NCBI GenBank assembly: GCA_964594155.1
Contig: CAZQLH010000001.1
Span: 1,448-65,447, forward strand
DNA: 64,000 nucleotides
Direction: 5' to 3'
Origin: an uncultured Candidatus Saccharibacteria bacterium
GTDB taxonomy: Bacteria > Patescibacteriota > Minisyncoccia > Portnoybacterales > UBA2143
Positions 33,314-41,268 of the stretch are shown here, one piece after another. A program made the translations under genes and the position numbers. Under the pieces are notes generated by a model, which searched no databases, had not been told where the DNA came from, and was given only the letters and a program-made list of their open reading frames with translations. Position 1 is the first letter of the stretch; the number at the start of each line of letters is the position of its first letter.

Positions 33314-33535
33314 TTAGATAATAAGACTAAGAAATGCAGTGATGATAAATAGGACGGCTAAGACAATACTGCTGATAAAAAGGACTTTTTCAAATCCTCT
33401 TTTAGTGTAATAGCTTGCTCCGCTGCTGCCGCCGCCAAAAAGACCAGAAGAACCAGCTCCTCTTTGCTGGAGGAGAATAGTAATAATTAAACCTATAGAT
33501 ATAATGATTTGAGAAATAGTTAAAGCAGATTCCAT
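33314..33535 (-). CDS. secG: preprotein translocase subunit SecG
   Basis: MESALTISQIIISIGLIITILLQQ..GLFGGGSSG pattern. Start set at ATG 33535 to avoid overlap with the upstream gene. Confidence 0.7.
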   Translation of the reverse strand: MESALTISQIIISIGLIITILLQQRGAGSSGLFGGGSSGASYYTKRGFEKVLFISSIVLAVLFIITAFLSLII

Positions 33536-33539
33536 TGTT

Positions 33540-33887
33540 TTAATCCTTTTTTTTCTTTCCTGTTCCAAAAAACATATTAACTGCGCTGATAATCAATACT
33601 CCCCAGAAATATGCCCAAAAGCCAACAATAGTCAGTTCTGGCACAAAGTATTCTAATAACCACAAAAGAATTATATTAATGATTATTAAAAATAGTCCCA
33701 GAGTTACAACAATTAAAGGAGTGGAAATTAACCGCAAAACAGGCCTGATAAAAAAGTTAATCAGTCCTAATAATAGTCCAGTGATAAATAATGTCAAGAT
33801 ATCGCCTTCAAAAATAAAGCCTGGCACTAAATAATCAGCTAAAAAAATAGCCAAGGCATTGGTTAAAATTTGAGCAACAAACTTCAT
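33540..33887 (-). CDS. small 3-4 TM membrane protein (phage-holin-4_2/DUF-like)
   Basis: 115 aa, hydrophobic with Lys-rich C-terminus. Confidence 0.5.
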   Translation of the reverse strand: MKFVAQILTNALAIFLADYLVPGFIFEGDILTLFITGLLLGLINFFIRPVLRLISTPLIVVTLGLFLIIINIILLWLLEYFVPELTIVGFWAYFWGVLIISAVNMFFGTGKKKKD

Positions 33888-34922: not shown

Positions 34923-35067
34923 AAACCACCCTCCGCAAGGAAGGTGGCTCTTGGATGTAATACCCTAACGGTTCTATGCCAGAACCGATAGACATTCTAA
35001 GTATATATAATTCGGAAACCATTGTCAAGATTTGTTTTTTATCCACAAGCAAAAAGGTATTAAATCA

Positions 35068-35412
35068 ATGAAAAAATATATATTGCCAATTAGACAAACA
35101 GACCGCGCTACTTATAATCTAATAAAAAGCGGGGAAAAAAGAGTTGAAACACGAGCGGCTAGTCCCAGATATAAAGATATTAAAGATGGAGATATTGTTG
35201 TTTTTAAGTGCGGAAATGATAGTTTTGAGCGTATTGTGAAAAAAGCGCGGAAATTTAATAATGTAGATAAAATACTTGATCATTATGATGTTAAAGATAT
35301 AAATCCAGGCGTTAATACTGTAGAAGAACTTAAATTAATGTATAATTCTTATCCTAATTATGCTGAAAAACTTAAAAAATACGGGATTATAGCATTTGAG
35401 CTTTTAGAGTAG
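35068..35412 (+). CDS. ASCH (PUA-like) domain protein
   Basis: ~115 aa; GEKRVETR..GDIVVF pattern typical of ASCH. Confidence 0.55.
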   Translation: MKKYILPIRQTDRATYNLIKSGEKRVETRAASPRYKDIKDGDIVVFKCGNDSFERIVKKARKFNNVDKILDHYDVKDINPGVNTVEELKLMYNSYPNYAEKLKKYGIIAFELLE

Positions 35413-35430
35413 GTTTGGATTTTCCCGCGA

Positions 35431-36561
35431 ATGCGAGAAAGATTCGCAAAATCAATGAAAACCAAAAAAAACATCAAAACCCCGGAATTAAAAGCCCCAG
35501 CTGGCAATCTTGAAATGGTTAAAAAAGTCATTAAAGCTGGCGCAGACTCTATTTTTATTGGATTAGAGGACTGCAGCAGAAGAAGATATAATGAATTAAC
35601 CTTATTAGAAGCAATTTACGCGACTAAATGGGTTAAGCAAAAAAACAAGAAAATATATATTGCCTTAAACGCAGACATTTCAGATGATGAAATTCAAGGA
35701 GTTCTTGATTTAAGGGTTAAAGAATTAGTTAATAAAGGCGTAGACGGCTTTATTTTAAGGACGCCTAAATTAATGGAAAGAATAAGCAAAGAATACAGAA
35801 GAAAAGGCTATCCAAATTTAGAAGTTGTTGCAAGCGTTGGATGTAATATTCAAACATCAGAACAAATTAAAAAATATGCTGATTATGGAATTTCAACATT
35901 GGTTTTAAGCACAGAACTGTCAAAACGGCCTTATGATGACAAGAAGAAAAATCAATTGATAGAATTAAGGAAAACCGCTGATAAATACAATATTAAACTA
36001 GAGATTCTCAGCGCTTTAACAGCTTGTATTAAAGGTGTTGGAGGCGGCGACGCTAAAGGATGTGATTTATATAAATATGCGGAAAATCTTACTCGTAAAA
36101 TTACTCATGAACATACAGACGGATTTAAGCGTTCATATTTTGATTTTTTTCCGCATAAAGGAGGCGGTTGCTTAAGGTGGTGTAATATTATATTTGATCC
36201 AGAAATTCAGCAGCATATTCTGAATAATGGCGGAAATCAAGATGATATTGATGTATTAGTAAAACACAGAGAAAACAAAACTGGAAATATCAGCATAATA
36301 CATGATTATGAAATTCTTGATTTAATAAAAATTGGAATGGATGTTATAAAAATACAGGGCAGGGAAAATACTCCTCAATGGGCCGCAAAAATAACAAAGA
36401 CAATGAGAAGTATTATTGATAATCCATTGGAATCAGAAGTTGAAAAGCACAAAAAAAGCCTTAAAACACTCAAAAATGATTGGGATAAAAGAAGATTTCA
36501 AGGAGATACAAAACTATTGGCAGAATTTTACAAAAGAACAGGAAAACCCTCCAAGACCTAA
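35431..36561 (+). CDS. peptidase U32 family protein
   Basis: N-terminal ELKAPAGNLE (the U32 E-L-L-A-P-A-G signature). Confidence 0.75.
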   Translation: MRERFAKSMKTKKNIKTPELKAPAGNLEMVKKVIKAGADSIFIGLEDCSRRRYNELTLLEAIYATKWVKQKNKKIYIALNADISDDEIQGVLDLRVKELVNKGVDGFILRTPKLMERISKEYRRKGYPNLEVVASVGCNIQTSEQIKKYADYGISTLVLSTELSKRPYDDKKKNQLIELRKTADKYNIKLEILSALTACIKGVGGGDAKGCDLYKYAENLTRKITHEHTDGFKRSYFDFFPHKGGGCLRWCNIIFDPEIQQHILNNGGNQDDIDVLVKHRENKTGNISIIHDYEILDLIKIGMDVIKIQGRENTPQWAAKITKTMRSIIDNPLESEVEKHKKSLKTLKNDWDKRRFQGDTKLLAEFYKRTGKPSKT

Positions 36562-36598
36562 CATTGAAATTTAAATAATCATTTGTTATAATTACCAT

Positions 36599-36793
36599 AT
36601 GACCAAAGAAGAGTTTTTAAAAATTTACGCCAATATCCCAATTAATCTTCGCAAAGAGATTCTTCTTGTCTTAAAGGATAAAGAACCAATTACTTGGAAT
36701 GTTGCTTATCTTGAAATAAATCAAGATACTCAATTAGGGAAAGAAATTTTAAAAAAATTAGATTTAATATGGGGAAAAAGAAAAAGAAAATAA
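36599..36793 (+). CDS. hypothetical protein (64 aa)
   Basis: ORF only. Confidence 0.4.
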   Translation: MTKEEFLKIYANIPINLRKEILLVLKDKEPITWNVAYLEINQDTQLGKEILKKLDLIWGKRKRK

Positions 36794-37026
36794 AAAAAGA
36801 AATTAAGGATTTAGTTATAGCGCGGCTGGGGGTTTTACCACCAGATAAAAAGATTTCTATCGGCTCATCAGGTGAGTTTACTAAAGATGAGCTAATTGAG
36901 CATGTAGAGAAAGAGGATGTTATTGGAGAGAAGATAACCGAGATTGAATTGGCCTATCTCAAAGCAATAAAAGAAGGTATTTTTTATGAACAAGATTTTT
37001 CTAATTACCAGACCGAAGCACGATGA
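36769..37026 (+). CDS. hypothetical protein (85 aa)
   Basis: ORF only; overlaps its neighbours. Confidence 0.4.
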   Translation: MGKKKKKIKKEIKDLVIARLGVLPPDKKISIGSSGEFTKDELIEHVEKEDVIGEKITEIELAYLKAIKEGIFYEQDFSNYQTEAR

Positions 37027-37630
37027 GACCACTTATTATCTTTTTCATTGGAGTAGAAAGGTGATAGAATTAGCAAAAAGAAAAGGAATTCAGGTTTTAG
37101 ATTTACAAAAAGAAAGGGCTAATAGAAAAGAGCTGACCAGTATTATAAAAAAGAAACAACCCTTTTTTATTTTTCTGAATGGCCATGGCGGGGCTAATTT
37201 TGTTGCCGGAGACGAGGATGAAGTTTTGATAAAAGCCGGCGATAATGAGGGGTTATTGAAATCTAAATTAGTTTATGCTTTATCTTGCCAATCAGCAAAA
37301 GGATTAGGACCAAAAAGCGTTAAAAAAGGAGCTATTAGTTATATTGGTTATGATGATGATTTTGTCTTCGTTTTTGACCAGGCAAAAATTTATAGACCAT
37401 TAGAAGATCTCACAGCAAAATTATTTTTTGATCCCTCAAATCAAATAGTCATTAGTTTATTAAAAGGACATGAAACCGGGGATGCCTATAAAAGATCTCA
37501 AGGGGTGTTTATGAAAAATATCCAGAGCTTATTGACTAGCGAATCATCGGTTGATTCAGTTTATCTTAGATATTTATTGTGGGATATGCAGCATCAAGTT
37601 TGTTTAGGGGATAAAGAGGCTGTTTTCTAA
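36986..37630 (+). CDS. hypothetical protein with caspase-like His..Cys arrangement
   Basis: FLNGHGG followed ~35 aa later by YALSCQSAKG, the His-then-Cys order of clan CD peptidases. Inference only. Confidence 0.45.
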   Translation: MNKIFLITRPKHDETTYYLFHWSRKVIELAKRKGIQVLDLQKERANRKELTSIIKKKQPFFIFLNGHGGANFVAGDEDEVLIKAGDNEGLLKSKLVYALSCQSAKGLGPKSVKKGAISYIGYDDDFVFVFDQAKIYRPLEDLTAKLFFDPSNQIVISLLKGHETGDAYKRSQGVFMKNIQSLLTSESSVDSVYLRYLLWDMQHQVCLGDKEAVF

Positions 37631-37654: not shown

Positions 37655-37680
37655 AAAATCGTCTTTTTAAGACGGTTTTT
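37655..37680 (+). terminator. intrinsic terminator
   Basis: aaaatcgtc-tttttaa-gacggttttt. Confidence 0.6.
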
Positions 37681-37684
37681 AAAA

Positions 37685-37713
37685 TTGACCAAACACAAGC
37701 AAAAAGGTATTAT
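37685..37713 (+). promoter_or_regulatory. promoter TTGACC-17-TATTAT after terminator
   Basis: Same junction module as at 34641. Contains the 19-mer cacaagcaaaaaggtatta, also found at 35044..35062. Confidence 0.45.
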
Positions 37714-37747
37714 TAAAGTAGAAACTTATGAAATAAGGAGGATTTAA

Positions 37748-38431
37748 ATGAATAAAAAGTTAAAAATTAAAGATTTGCCGCCAATTGATCGCCCAAGAGA
37801 GAAAATGAAAGCTAAAGGCCCGCAAAACCTCAAAGACGCAGAGCTTTTAGCTATTCTTTTAGGAACTGGCTATCAAGGCAAGAATGTTCTTGAATTAGCT
37901 AAATCTATTTTATCTAAATATAGGGGCAAAAAACTGATTTCTTTGAATTACGATGAATTAGTGAAAATAAAGGGGATTAGCCAGGCTAAAGCAGCTATAA
38001 TCCTATCAGCCGTAGAATTAACTAAAAGAGCTTTAAAACATAAAGATGATGATACTTTGCCAATAATCAAGTCAGTTAAAGATGTTGTTGCTCAATCTGT
38101 CTATATGAGGGATAAAAAGAGAGAACATTTCCAAGTCATATACCTTAACGCTAGAAATGAGATGATTGATAAAAAACCAATGTTTGTCGGCACTCTTAAT
38201 GTTAATTTAGTTCATCCAAGAGAAATCTTTGCCAGAGCTGTAGAAAACAATTCTGCATCCATTATTTTAGTTCATAATCATTTATCTAGCGACCCAGAGC
38301 CATCACAGGATGATATTGAAGTTACCAAGCGCATTGTTGAAGCTGGCAAGATAATGGGGATTGAGGTCTTAGATCATGTAATTATAGCTAAAAACAAGTT
38401 TTTCAGCTTTTCGGAGAAAAAATTACTCTAA
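37748..38431 (+). CDS. radC: RadC-like JAB/MPN-domain protein (UPF0758)
   Basis: JAMM-like HNHLSSDPEPSQDD; N-terminal HhH region. Confidence 0.8.
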   Translation: MNKKLKIKDLPPIDRPREKMKAKGPQNLKDAELLAILLGTGYQGKNVLELAKSILSKYRGKKLISLNYDELVKIKGISQAKAAIILSAVELTKRALKHKDDDTLPIIKSVKDVVAQSVYMRDKKREHFQVIYLNARNEMIDKKPMFVGTLNVNLVHPREIFARAVENNSASIILVHNHLSSDPEPSQDDIEVTKRIVEAGKIMGIEVLDHVIIAKNKFFSFSEKKLL

Positions 38432-38568
38432 TTTTTTCGTAGATCCGCCTCTGGAGGAAAAGAAAAGAAATTGATTTAATTTGTAATGTATTTGCGTGAA
38501 TTTGTGTCACTTTTACTAAAAATTCACGGTATATTGACATTTTATCGTGAATTTACTACAATAGTAGT

Positions 38569-39471
38569 ATGACTATATCAAAAGACATTAAAGAAAAAAT
38601 TAATACATTAAAACAAGAATATGATTCTTTAAAGAAAGACAAAGAATCGCTTTTGGATATTGTGTTTGAATCAGAGTTGCCAGAATCTGTCTATAACTCA
38701 AACGCTATTGAAAATTCAACTCTTACTATTTCTGAAACAGAAAAGATTCTTTTAGATATGGAAGTTTCCCGCAATGTATCAGTGCGTGAAGTTTTTGAAG
38801 CAAAAAATTTGGCGCGAGTATTTGAATATATAAGAGGCAAGATAAGCGCGAAAAATGTTGATAAGGAATTTATCTTGCTATTGCATAAGATGTTAATTTC
38901 AAATATAGACGAGGGAATTGCCGGCAGATTTCGGAAACAACATGAATATGTCAGAGTTGGGACGCATATTGCGCCTGCTTCAAAGCATATCAATAATATG
39001 ATTAATGCCATGCTTTTAGAATATTCAAGCCGCCACACAGAATACTTTCTTGAAAAAATTGCCAAATTCCATCTTGAATTTGAACACATTCATCCATTTT
39101 GCGATGGTAATGGAAGAATTGGGCGCGTGTTGATCAACTATCAATTAATACAGCTTGGATTTCCGCCAATTATTATTCGTGATAAGGAAAAAGCCGTTTA
39201 TTACAAATCCTTTGGAGAGTATAGAGATAGTAATAAGAAAAAAACAGCAATTATGAATAAAGTTTTGTTTTTAGCGCTTTTAGAATCTTTTCATAAAAGA
39301 ATCGCTTATTTAAAAGGAGAGAAAATTGTACGACTTTCAGAATACGCTGAAAAGAAAAATGAATCTGCGTCTATTTTTCTCAATAAAGCCAAGCGGCAAA
39401 CCATTCCCGCTTTCCGTGAAAAAGGAATATGGAAAATCGGAAATACTAAAAAAGACAAGAACAGTTCTTAA
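38569..39471 (+). CDS. Fic-family protein (class II, N-terminal autoinhibitory motif)
   Basis: Fic motif HPFCDGNGRIGR. N-terminal SNAIEN matches the [ST]xxxE[GN] inhibitory motif. Confidence 0.85.
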   Translation: MTISKDIKEKINTLKQEYDSLKKDKESLLDIVFESELPESVYNSNAIENSTLTISETEKILLDMEVSRNVSVREVFEAKNLARVFEYIRGKISAKNVDKEFILLLHKMLISNIDEGIAGRFRKQHEYVRVGTHIAPASKHINNMINAMLLEYSSRHTEYFLEKIAKFHLEFEHIHPFCDGNGRIGRVLINYQLIQLGFPPIIIRDKEKAVYYKSFGEYRDSNKKKTAIMNKVLFLALLESFHKRIAYLKGEKIVRLSEYAEKKNESASIFLNKAKRQTIPAFREKGIWKIGNTKKDKNSS

Positions 39472-39934: not shown

Positions 39935-40201
39935 TTGGGTTTGGTTAGAGGAAATACTATTAGAGCCAAGCATATTGGCAAGGATATTTTAGCTGGCTTA
40001 AGAAGCATTGTTGGCGGAGAGATTAAGGAATACACAGAAGCGTTGTCTAAAGCAAGAGAAGTGGCAATTAAAAGAATGATTGAGCAGGCAAATGAATTAG
40101 GAGCAGATGCGATTATTGGCGTTAGATTTACTACTTCTCAAGTTATGGCTGGCGCAGCTGAATTATTAGTTTATGGAACAGCCGTAAAACTAACTGAATA
40201 A
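39935..40201 (+). CDS. YbjQ/UPF0145-family protein, 5'-truncated duplicate copy (TTG start or pseudogene)
   Basis: 100% nucleotide identity with 42103..42369. Lacks the N-terminal 17 codons and the ATG of the full copy. Confidence 0.5.
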   Translation: MGLVRGNTIRAKHIGKDILAGLRSIVGGEIKEYTEALSKAREVAIKRMIEQANELGADAIIGVRFTTSQVMAGAAELLVYGTAVKLTE

Positions 40202-40632: not shown

Positions 40633-41268
40633 ATGAGGAATTTTTCAAGGATTGGTAAAATCTTAATAATTTCTGTTTTGGTTGTTGCTGGCGTATTTGT
40701 TTTTGTTCGTTTTAAAGATAACAATGAATATATTGTTAAAGTAATTAAGGTTATTGACGGAGATACAATTGTTATTGAAGGAGGGGAAATAGTAAGATAT
40801 ATTGGAATTAATGCGCCGGAAACAAGCCAGGATAAGGATGATTGCTTTGCCCAGGAAGCATTTAACGCAAATAAGGAATTAATTGAAGGAAAAGAGGTTA
40901 AATTAAAAAAAGATGTTTCAGAAAAGGATAAATATGGAAGATTGTTAAGATATGTCTGGATTGACGATATTTTTGTTAATGAATATTTAGTTAGGCAGGG
41001 ATATGCTTTATCAGCTGAATATCCTCCTGATACAAAGTATGCAGAGCAGTTTGATAATTTAGAAAAACAAGCTAAAGAAGAAAATTTAGGATTATGGTCT
41101 GCGTGCCAAATTAACGGAATTATCTGTTCTATAAATGCGTATGATTGCTCTGATTTTGAAACACAAAAGGAAGCCCAGGGGATTTATGAGCATTGCGGAG
41201 GCGCAAATAATGATATTCATAAGTTAGATAGTGATAATGATAAAATAGCTTGCGAGAGTTTGTTTTAA
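40633..41268 (+). CDS. secreted thermonuclease (SNase/micrococcal nuclease-like) with C-terminal Excalibur Ca-binding domain
   Basis: N-terminal signal anchor; SNase core (GRLLRYVW..); C-terminal DSDNDKIACE Excalibur motif. Confidence 0.75.
   Translation: MRNFSRIGKILIISVLVVAGVFVFVRFKDNNEYIVKVIKVIDGDTIVIEGGEIVRYIGINAPETSQDKDDCFAQEAFNANKELIEGKEVKLKKDVSEKDKYGRLLRYVWIDDIFVNEYLVRQGYALSAEYPPDTKYAEQFDNLEKQAKEENLGLWSACQINGIICSINAYDCSDFETQKEAQGIYEHCGGANNDIHKLDSDNDKIACESLF

Follow-up and report, generated by a model that had tools for sequence, protein, structure and literature searches.

Within a 64,000-nt stretch of contig CAZQLH010000001.1 (positions 1,448 to 65,447, forward strand; assembly GCA_964594155.1, deposited as an uncultured Candidatus Saccharibacteria bacterium), hereafter called the window, three overlapping genes, g1, g2, and g3, form a cassette that recurs in the same order in Bacteria and Archaea. 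Judged by its structural model, g3 is a cysteine peptidase with the clan CD fold and a predicted His67/Cys101 dyad. We propose, with a probability of roughly 0.55, that the locus is an autonomous three-gene unit, in which this minimal cytoplasmic clan CD endopeptidase is accompanied by two obligate small partner proteins. Caspase-like (clan CD) proteases drive eukaryotic cell-fate decisions, and the prokaryotic clan CD effectors of CRISPR, cyclic-oligonucleotide-based antiphage signalling (CBASS), and gasdermin immunity are large, multi-domain, sensor-wired proteins. The g3 protein represents the clan CD catalytic fold in its barest known form, fixed in a trio with two orphan mini-proteins, and the trio is conserved at about 45–50% identity from Parcubacteria to Woesearchaeota.

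An earlier note on this DNA had described three overlapping open reading frames (ORFs) of 64, 85, and 214 aa. Their positions are exactly as described, with overlaps of 25 nt between g1 and g2 and 41 nt between g2 and g3:

36599-36793, plus strand: g1, 64-aa orphan small protein
36769-37026, plus strand: g2, 85-aa orphan small protein
36986-37630, plus strand: g3, 214-aa stand-alone cysteine peptidase domain with a caspase-hemoglobinase (clan CD-like) fold

Predicted fold and active site of g3

The AlphaFold2 model of g3, which was built on an alignment of 35 sequences, has a predicted local distance difference test score (pLDDT) of 96.2 and a predicted template-modelling score (pTM) of 0.92. 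It is an alpha/beta/alpha sandwich around a six-stranded sheet, in which the strands beta1 to beta5 are parallel and beta6 comes last, as is characteristic of the clan CD fold. In both structure searches with this model, the top matches were exclusively clan CD peptidases, which bears out the caspase-like fold suggested in the earlier note. The best Foldseek match was SAVED-CHAT (E=1.7e-7, 18% identity), and further matches were caspase-11/-4, RgpB (TM 0.62-0.64), C11, GPI8, and Craspase. On RgpB, the model superposes with 2.3 Å over 170 residues.

The earlier note had also drawn attention to the segments FLNGHGG (residues 63–69) and YALSCQSAKG (residues 97–106), whose order and spacing it compared with those of clan CD peptidases. 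In the model, FIFLN-GHG with H67 follows beta3, and VYALS-C with C101 follows beta4, 34 residues further on, in the His-then-Cys order of the clan. The conservation of these residues was counted over 322 distinct full-length homologs: G66, G68, and C101 are invariant (100%), and H67 (99.7%), D141 (99.1%), G75 and G121/Y122 (about 99%), and N65 (96.9%) are nearly so. The GHG...C motif is no chance match, because its residues are the most conserved positions of the family. Furthermore, the strand-end residues conserved at 93% or more are all located at the C-terminal ends of beta1 (T8, P10), beta3 (N65-G68), beta4 (C101), and beta5 (G121, Y122), and the active sites of clan CD enzymes lie on the sheet face formed by the C-terminal strand ends. 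H67 and C101 are predicted to lie next to each other, as judged from the topology and the RgpB superposition. The codons concerned are the following:

37178-37189, plus strand: N65-G66-H67-G68, with the proposed catalytic His at the C-terminal end of beta3
37184-37186, plus strand: H67
37286-37288, plus strand: C101, the proposed nucleophile, two residues past beta4
37406-37408, plus strand: D141, a near-invariant acid 40 residues past the Cys

No signal peptide, prodomain, or sensor domain was found in g3, which is a single uninterrupted domain. The position of D141 suggests that it is a candidate S1-pocket residue that may confer a preference for a basic P1 residue; the pocket acids of Kgp, legumain, and MALT1 sit at a similar offset.

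Three families of real, unannotated genes

The homologs indicate that all three ORFs are real genes. In a 90%-clustered database, g3 has 337 homologs, nearly all of 210–220 aa and labelled “hypothetical”, from Patescibacteria, Parcubacteria, Kuenenbacteria, and related groups. A profile search of 1.84 billion representatives returned 2,407 clusters (50% identity) at E<=1e-3 and 378 at E<=1e-30, and the best 150 of these are all stand-alone proteins of about 215 aa. The g2 family has 191 homologs of 67–91 aa, and the g1 family 784, of which the 120 listed are about 60 aa long. The mean pairwise identities of the three cassette families are comparable (0.52, 0.46, and 0.45).

The earlier note had recognized no canonical family, and this assessment holds. 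For g1, g2, and g3 there is nothing in Pfam, NCBIfam, PADLOC, or PHROGs at E<=1, and nothing among PDB sequences with either single sequences or profiles. No domain, name, or fusion appears among the matches listed for the three families, and in the precomputed annotation the Pfam field is empty for all 120 g3 homologs listed.

A public gene call (P0001, 189 aa) begins g3 at an internal codon, thereby avoiding the overlap with g2. The N-terminal LITRPxHD segment that this call omits is conserved among the homologs and builds strand beta1 of the model; because of this conserved segment, the 214-aa g3 is correct and the 189-aa call is wrong.

Neither the literature searched nor Pfam, NCBIfam, PADLOC, or PHROGs contains a description of the family or the cassette. 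The fold and its chemistry have been described before. What is new is the occurrence of a minimal domain standing alone, its constant grouping with two orphan mini-proteins, and the distribution over the candidate phyla radiation (CPR), DPANN archaea, and Omnitrophota. The g3 protein is therefore a new sequence family with a new architecture inside a known protease clan, and would enlarge clan CD by one family in peptidase classifications.

Synteny of the cassette

To what extent do the three genes belong together? A scan of the GTDB species representatives gave 103 loci with a relative, of which the best 80 were kept. Synteny was scored with hidden Markov models (HMMs) of g1, g2, and g3 over the 81 loci with enough upstream sequence, comprising 77 new loci, the window, and three earlier loci. 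The three genes are adjacent and co-oriented in all 81, including those of DPANN and Omnitrophota, and the only three exceptions to the g1-g2-g3 order are loci cut by a contig end. Thus, the three-gene arrangement of the earlier note is a conserved one. Similarly, the contigs of three divergent g3 homologs carry the same pair of small genes upstream, in wholly different surroundings. The g1 and g2 frames overlap, typically as ATGA, or lie no more than 13 nt apart in 79 of the 81 loci, and g2 and g3 overlap by 4 to 41 nt in 63. A programmed frameshift joining g2 to g3 is excluded, since the relative frame of the two genes differs among loci.

The linkage does not extend to a fourth gene. Among the flanking clusters, the one met most often is present at six of 84 loci, and the commonest Pfam family among 143 immediate neighbours occurs three times. 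PADLOC identified scattered, non-recurrent systems among the neighbours, with one each of AbiEi, DRT, type IIG restriction-modification, and SoFic. In the window, the cassette is followed by RadC (UPF0758_N plus a RadC-like JAB domain) and a Fic/DOC protein (37685-39471), and the earlier note had suggested that a protease operon next to these two could belong to a signalling or defence module. A link of the cassette to RadC and Fic is rejected: among more than 80 loci, RadC lies near the cassette in two others and Fic in one, and RadC has its own promoter-like site. RadC and Fic/DOC form a unit separate from the cassette, and their presence beside it in the window is coincidental.

Three loci show irregularities of their own. 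In L082 (3985-4812), g3 is broken into two ORFs that overlap, each with a match to the family profile, representing either a frameshifted pseudogene or an assembly error. Two contigs of the metagenome-assembled genome CAWDHP01 (L031 and L033) carry two cassette copies with near-identical upstream regions, owing either to a true duplication or to strain heterogeneity in the bin.

The small partners g1 and g2

The g1 family, usually of about 60 aa, follows the pattern F-x3-Y-x-N-L-P-x3-R-x-E ... P-I-T-W ... E ... T-x-L-G-x2-I-L-x-K-L. The last two residues are hydrophobic in 193 of the 197 distinct sequences and read -II in 161 of the 197, while the preceding residue varies (K, E, Q, G, N, or D). 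At most loci, g1 ends in L-x-I-I, and its stop codon TGA is part of an ATGA shared with the start codon of g2. In the window (36766-36793), the usual stop reads TGG, and seven extra codons (WGKRKRK) produce the 25-nt overlap with g2. This extension is shared with the two closest relatives, L007 and L008, in the form WGK(R/T/E)K(R/K)(K/R). Because the TGG variant is kept within the clade, it is no sequencing error.

The g2 protein consists of a variable N-terminal tail, a conserved core at about residues 12–70, and a C-terminal tail. The core is composed of a helix, a beta-hairpin with the sequence ISIGSxGEFT, and two further helices. The C-terminal tail is disordered in the model (pLDDT <50), is encoded in the stretch overlapping g3, and is missing where the g2/g3 overlap is short. 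Among close relatives, its conservation (FYEQDF.N..TE) coincides with the out-of-frame N-terminus of g3, MNKI.LITRPKHD (window 36986-37026 and homologous loci). The conservation of the tail is therefore probably a by-product of the overlap, carried along as a passenger of the conserved g3 N-terminus.

The possibility that g1 is a sigma-70 region 4 or LuxR-type helix-turn-helix (HTH) protein received no support: there is no Pfam signal in 32 members and no PDB profile match, and hhalign against a hand-made sigma4/LuxR alignment gave a probability of 0.2%. No DNA-binding signature was found in either g1 or g2 by the Pfam scan and hhalign. As paralogs, g1 and g2 were not supported by direct hhalign comparison (probability <2%, local P=0.03).

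The transcription unit

The following features flank the genes of the cassette:

36564-36592, plus strand: promoter-like site TTGAAA-17 nt-TATAAT with a TG extended -10, 11/12 matches, ending 6 nt 5′ of the g1 ATG
37655-37679, plus strand: 11-bp hairpin between an A-tract and a U-tract, 25 nt past the g3 stop; -9.8 kcal/mol, z = -2.1
37685-37713, plus strand: promoter-like site TTGACC-17-TATTAT before RadC, the next such site after the cassette

A perfect TATAAT within 45 nt upstream of the gene start was counted by hand at 32 of 80 loci for g1, as compared to 16 of 142 neighbouring genes, and a -10 box lies 4–12 nt from the ATG at 31 of 80 loci for g1 and in 21 of 142 neighbours. Both are commoner before g1 than before the neighbours, and therefore the cassette usually brings its own promoter. 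As the promoter-like site in the window ends 6 nt from the g1 ATG, a leaderless or near-leaderless tricistronic mRNA is implied, and cassette transcripts in general may often be leaderless or very short-leadered. At the archaeal loci, A/T-rich octamers resembling TATA boxes appear about 27–33 nt upstream of the ATG, in a visual reading of AT-rich sequence. A missing Shine-Dalgarno sequence was rejected as a peculiarity of g1; this element is equally rare before g1 (6/80) and before its neighbours (16/142). Downstream, the hairpin at 37655-37679 is a plausible intrinsic terminator closing the transcription unit; a consensus scan did not call it.

Distribution and a viral relative

Lineages were taken from record titles, of which those reading “Gammaproteobacteria” and “Saccharibacteria” (automated third-party assemblies, TPA) are probably unreliable. 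The CPR loci belong to Parcubacteria groups, Microgenomates (Roizman-, Woese-, and Gottesmanbacteria), Gracilibacteria, Peribacteria, Berkelbacteria, and Magasanikbacteria. Outside the CPR, the cassette occurs in Omnitrophota and in the DPANN lineages Woesearchaeota, Aenigmatarchaeota, Micrarchaeota, and Nanoarchaeota, and the archaeal loci include two complete chromosomes, CP010426 and CP066684. The archaeal copies are mutual best matches (51–58% identity), as are those of Omnitrophota (61–72%), and the identity across domains (45–50%) does not fall below the overall mean of 44.5%. This pattern fits a transfer between domains that happened long ago, after which strong constraint preserved the cassette.

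The g3 family is absent from PLSDB plasmids, and three pattern scans of IMG/VR viral contigs gave no match. A divergent homolog of 248 aa, v54, is encoded by the archaeal virus BK063666.1 (Caudoviricetes sp. vir519, host Methanofastidiosa; L087 4241-5184). It shares 26.5% identity with g3 and matches the family HMM with E=3e-19; the GHG, SC, and Y-x-EDF motifs are kept, while the RPLxD segment is not present. A hydrophobic C-terminal stretch, read by eye, may form a transmembrane helix. The start of v54 is overlapped by 4 nt by a 66-aa gene, v53. Searched against a database of five sequences, the HMMs of g1 (E=1e-3) and g2 (E=1.6e-4) each give a weak match to v53. With identical spacing, v53, g1, and g2 share a 20-residue motif, Phi-T-x3-Phi-Phi-x-[EH]-[IV]-x3-[TD]-x-Phi-G-x2-I, and v53 thereby provides a weak lead that hints at g1 and g2 being ancient duplicates. 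The v53-v54 pair supports a functional coupling of a small partner and the protease, and may be a version of the cassette with two genes, either ancestral or derived. In the same viral genome, a DpdA/TGT-like gene is located about 1.1 kb upstream of v53 and about 1.3 kb from v54.

Two archaeal neighbourhoods hint at mobile or variable regions. In an Aenigmatarchaeota chromosome (L042 2323-3510), a phage-type tyrosine integrase is directly 5′ of the cassette, and in archaeon GW2011_AR20 (L032 2298-3385) this place is taken by a HEPN and nucleotidyltransferase pair.

Comparison with known systems

The closest known systems include the CHAT-domain proteases, namely the SAVED-CHAT of type III-B CRISPR/CBASS hybrids, TPR-CHAT/Csx29 (“Craspase”), and the anti-sigma factor DdvA. 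In contrast to these, g3 has only 214 aa and contains no SAVED, TPR, or transmembrane sensor domain; the cassette has no CRISPR/CBASS neighbourhood, and two orphan small proteins are always present. The dyad residues are 34 residues apart in g3 and 47 in CHAT (H375/C422). The CHAT profile (Pfam PF12770) does not match g3, and hmmscan against Pfam-A gave no clan CD family even at E<=1.

In the gingipain RgpB, whose sequence was validated against 4ief_B, the spacing from His211 to Cys244 is 33 residues and thus close to that of g3. A sequence-level link to the gingipains (Peptidase_C25) was rejected, as hhalign of the g3 profile against the RgpB catalytic domain gave a probability of 0.2% and no Pfam match exists; in structural alignments the identity is 8–13%. 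Moreover, the gingipains R and K of Porphyromonas gingivalis (MEROPS C25) are secreted, multi-domain proteins with a prodomain, an Ig-like domain, and a C-terminal domain for the type IX secretion system (T9SS), whereas g3 is a bare intracellular domain. As for the caspases, metacaspases, and orthocaspases (C14), g3 has neither a Peptidase_C14 Pfam match nor an NCBIfam match, and lacks the p20/p10 linker and the prodomain. Structurally, g3 is nearer to C25 and CHAT than to C14, and by profile criteria its sequence falls outside all three.

A prokaryotic caspase-like protease, PCaspase, has been described with an adjacent inhibitor (PCi) and a sigma-factor substrate beside it (10.1101/2023.06.23.546230). 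The likeness of our cassette to the PCaspase-PCi-PCc-sigma system, and to separase-securin, lies in the combination of a protease with a dedicated inhibitor and substrate, roles that we infer for the partners here. The differences are that no sequence relationship connects g1 and g2 (about 60 and 80 aa) with securin, PCi, or sigma factors, and that the cassette has no upstream activator such as a cyclic-oligoadenylate sensor. A resemblance to toxin-antitoxin-like addiction modules is favoured by the small autonomous operon with its own promoter, the variable context, and the spread across domains, and disfavoured by the unusually high conservation, the absence from plasmids, and the lack of a DNA-binding signature in g1 and g2.

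Proposed mechanism and alternatives

How might such a small protease be controlled? The overlapping frames would provide coupled and roughly equimolar synthesis of g1, g2, and g3, which would form a complex. As g3 has no prodomain, sensor domain, or cofactor site, its activity is probably controlled by the binding of g1 and/or g2. By analogy with securin-separase and PCi/PCc-sigma-PCaspase, one partner could be a pseudosubstrate or inhibitor of g3, with the second working as its adaptor or dedicated substrate. Once a trigger had caused a partner to be removed or cleaved, proteolysis could begin, and the hydrophobic -I-I end of g1 may serve as a docking or degron element.

With respect to the cellular role, the portability across domains, the variable context, and the occasional integrase or defence neighbours point to a conflict or stress switch, while the unusually high conservation and the lineage-coherent clustering point to a retained physiological function. 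The cassette may serve as a switch in stress, dormancy, or conflict, or have a housekeeping function specific to certain lineages. A bolder version, which we offer only tentatively, is that it constitutes an unrecognized, self-contained proteolytic switch with partners that are perhaps distant paralogs; having passed between the bacterial and archaeal domains, the switch would have been kept by ultra-small lineages that depend on hosts (CPR/Patescibacteria, DPANN, and Omnitrophota), maybe as a dormancy, suicide, or partner-processing device.

Several observations weigh against a partner-controlled protease unit of this kind. PADLOC recognizes neither the cassette nor any consistent defence neighbourhood, and the high conservation across phyla and domains is unlike that of typical fast-evolving toxin-antitoxin or defence modules. 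The partners themselves offer little guidance, since g1 has no detectable relatives of known function and the g2 model gave no informative fold match. Finally, D141 is absent in the viral homolog v54, and the deduction about P1 is weak.

The conservation also lends itself to a different explanation, in which g1 and g2 are neither inhibitors nor substrates but specificity subunits that recruit cellular substrates to a housekeeping or adaptor-guided protease, serving for instance regulated proteolysis or protein maturation in lineages with reduced protease repertoires. All three proteins are conserved at a housekeeping-like level (mean identity 45–52% across phyla), some cassettes lie amid core genes, as in L005, where the cassette is located between secA and adk-map, and the archaeal copies group with one another, as do those of Omnitrophota, which would fit long vertical retention. 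We nevertheless regard this explanation as rather unlikely, because the cassette spans Bacteria and Archaea, two domains with different cellular substrates, because its context is highly variable and some loci adjoin an integrase, a HEPN/nucleotidyltransferase pair, or defence genes, and because the family is seemingly not universal in the CPR (378 clusters at 50% identity and E<=1e-30). If g1 and g2 merely shared an operon with the protease and had unrelated functions, for example as small DNA-binding regulators, their lack of functional annotation and the superficial HTH-likeness of g1 would be accounted for. This is improbable in view of the 81/81 synteny over two domains of life, the overlapping frames, the pairing of a small gene with the protease that persists even in the 26%-identical viral homolog, and the lack of support for the HTH hypothesis.

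About as improbable, and if anything more so, is a transpeptidase or ligase function (compare GPI8, legumain-type ligases, and PorU), in which g3 would process or attach g1 or g2 by way of a recognition motif at a terminus, in a form of small-protein tagging. The C25 family and the glycosylphosphatidylinositol (GPI) transamidase are among the closest structural relatives, and the g1 C-terminus is near-invariant, with -II in 161 of 197 sequences; yet the variable residue before -II is ill-suited to a strict clan CD P1 specificity, and the clade of the window tolerates a basic extension of seven residues past this motif. An archaeal virus with a distant homolog and the integrase 5′ of the Aenigmatarchaeota cassette could be taken to mean that the cassette is a remnant of a virus or mobile element, such as a virion maturation protease with scaffold proteins. 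We consider this very improbable, since the IMG/VR scans and plasmids gave no match, no capsid or terminase genes flank the 84 loci, and the viral copy is highly divergent and apparently membrane-anchored. Least probable of all is a catalytically dead scaffold resembling c-FLIP or the caspase-like domain of Raptor: pseudo-enzymes typically lose the catalytic residues, whereas no positions in the 322 homologs are better conserved than the dyad and the glycines beside it.

If the cassette does encode a regulated protease complex, it would offer a minimal, tractable model for the control of clan CD enzymes by partner proteins. It would also open a route to the function of three “hypothetical” families in the “dark matter” of CPR and DPANN, for each of which the searches retrieved hundreds of homologs, and present a clear case of a conserved module common to bacterial and archaeal nano-organisms.

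Other genes in the window

On the 5′ side of the cassette (35032-36561), the window encodes a 126-aa ASCH-domain protein and a 376-aa protein with a partial match to Peptidase_U32 (E=6e-17, residues 96-164). At the other loci, neither protein shows a link with the cassette. Further upstream, on the minus strand (33314-33887), SecG (84 aa) overlaps by 29 nt with a 115-aa membrane protein of the Phage_holin_4_2 family.

On the 3′ side, an 88-aa YbjQ_1 family protein (39935-40201) with a TTG start matches only positions 18-103 of the profile; its true start may lie further upstream, or the N-terminus may be truncated. The protein encoded at 40633-41268 has a hydrophobic N-terminus and combines SNase (staphylococcal nuclease) and Excalibur calcium-binding domains. 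It is probably a nuclease that is secreted or exposed at the cell surface, as would suit nucleotide scavenging by a CPR bacterium.

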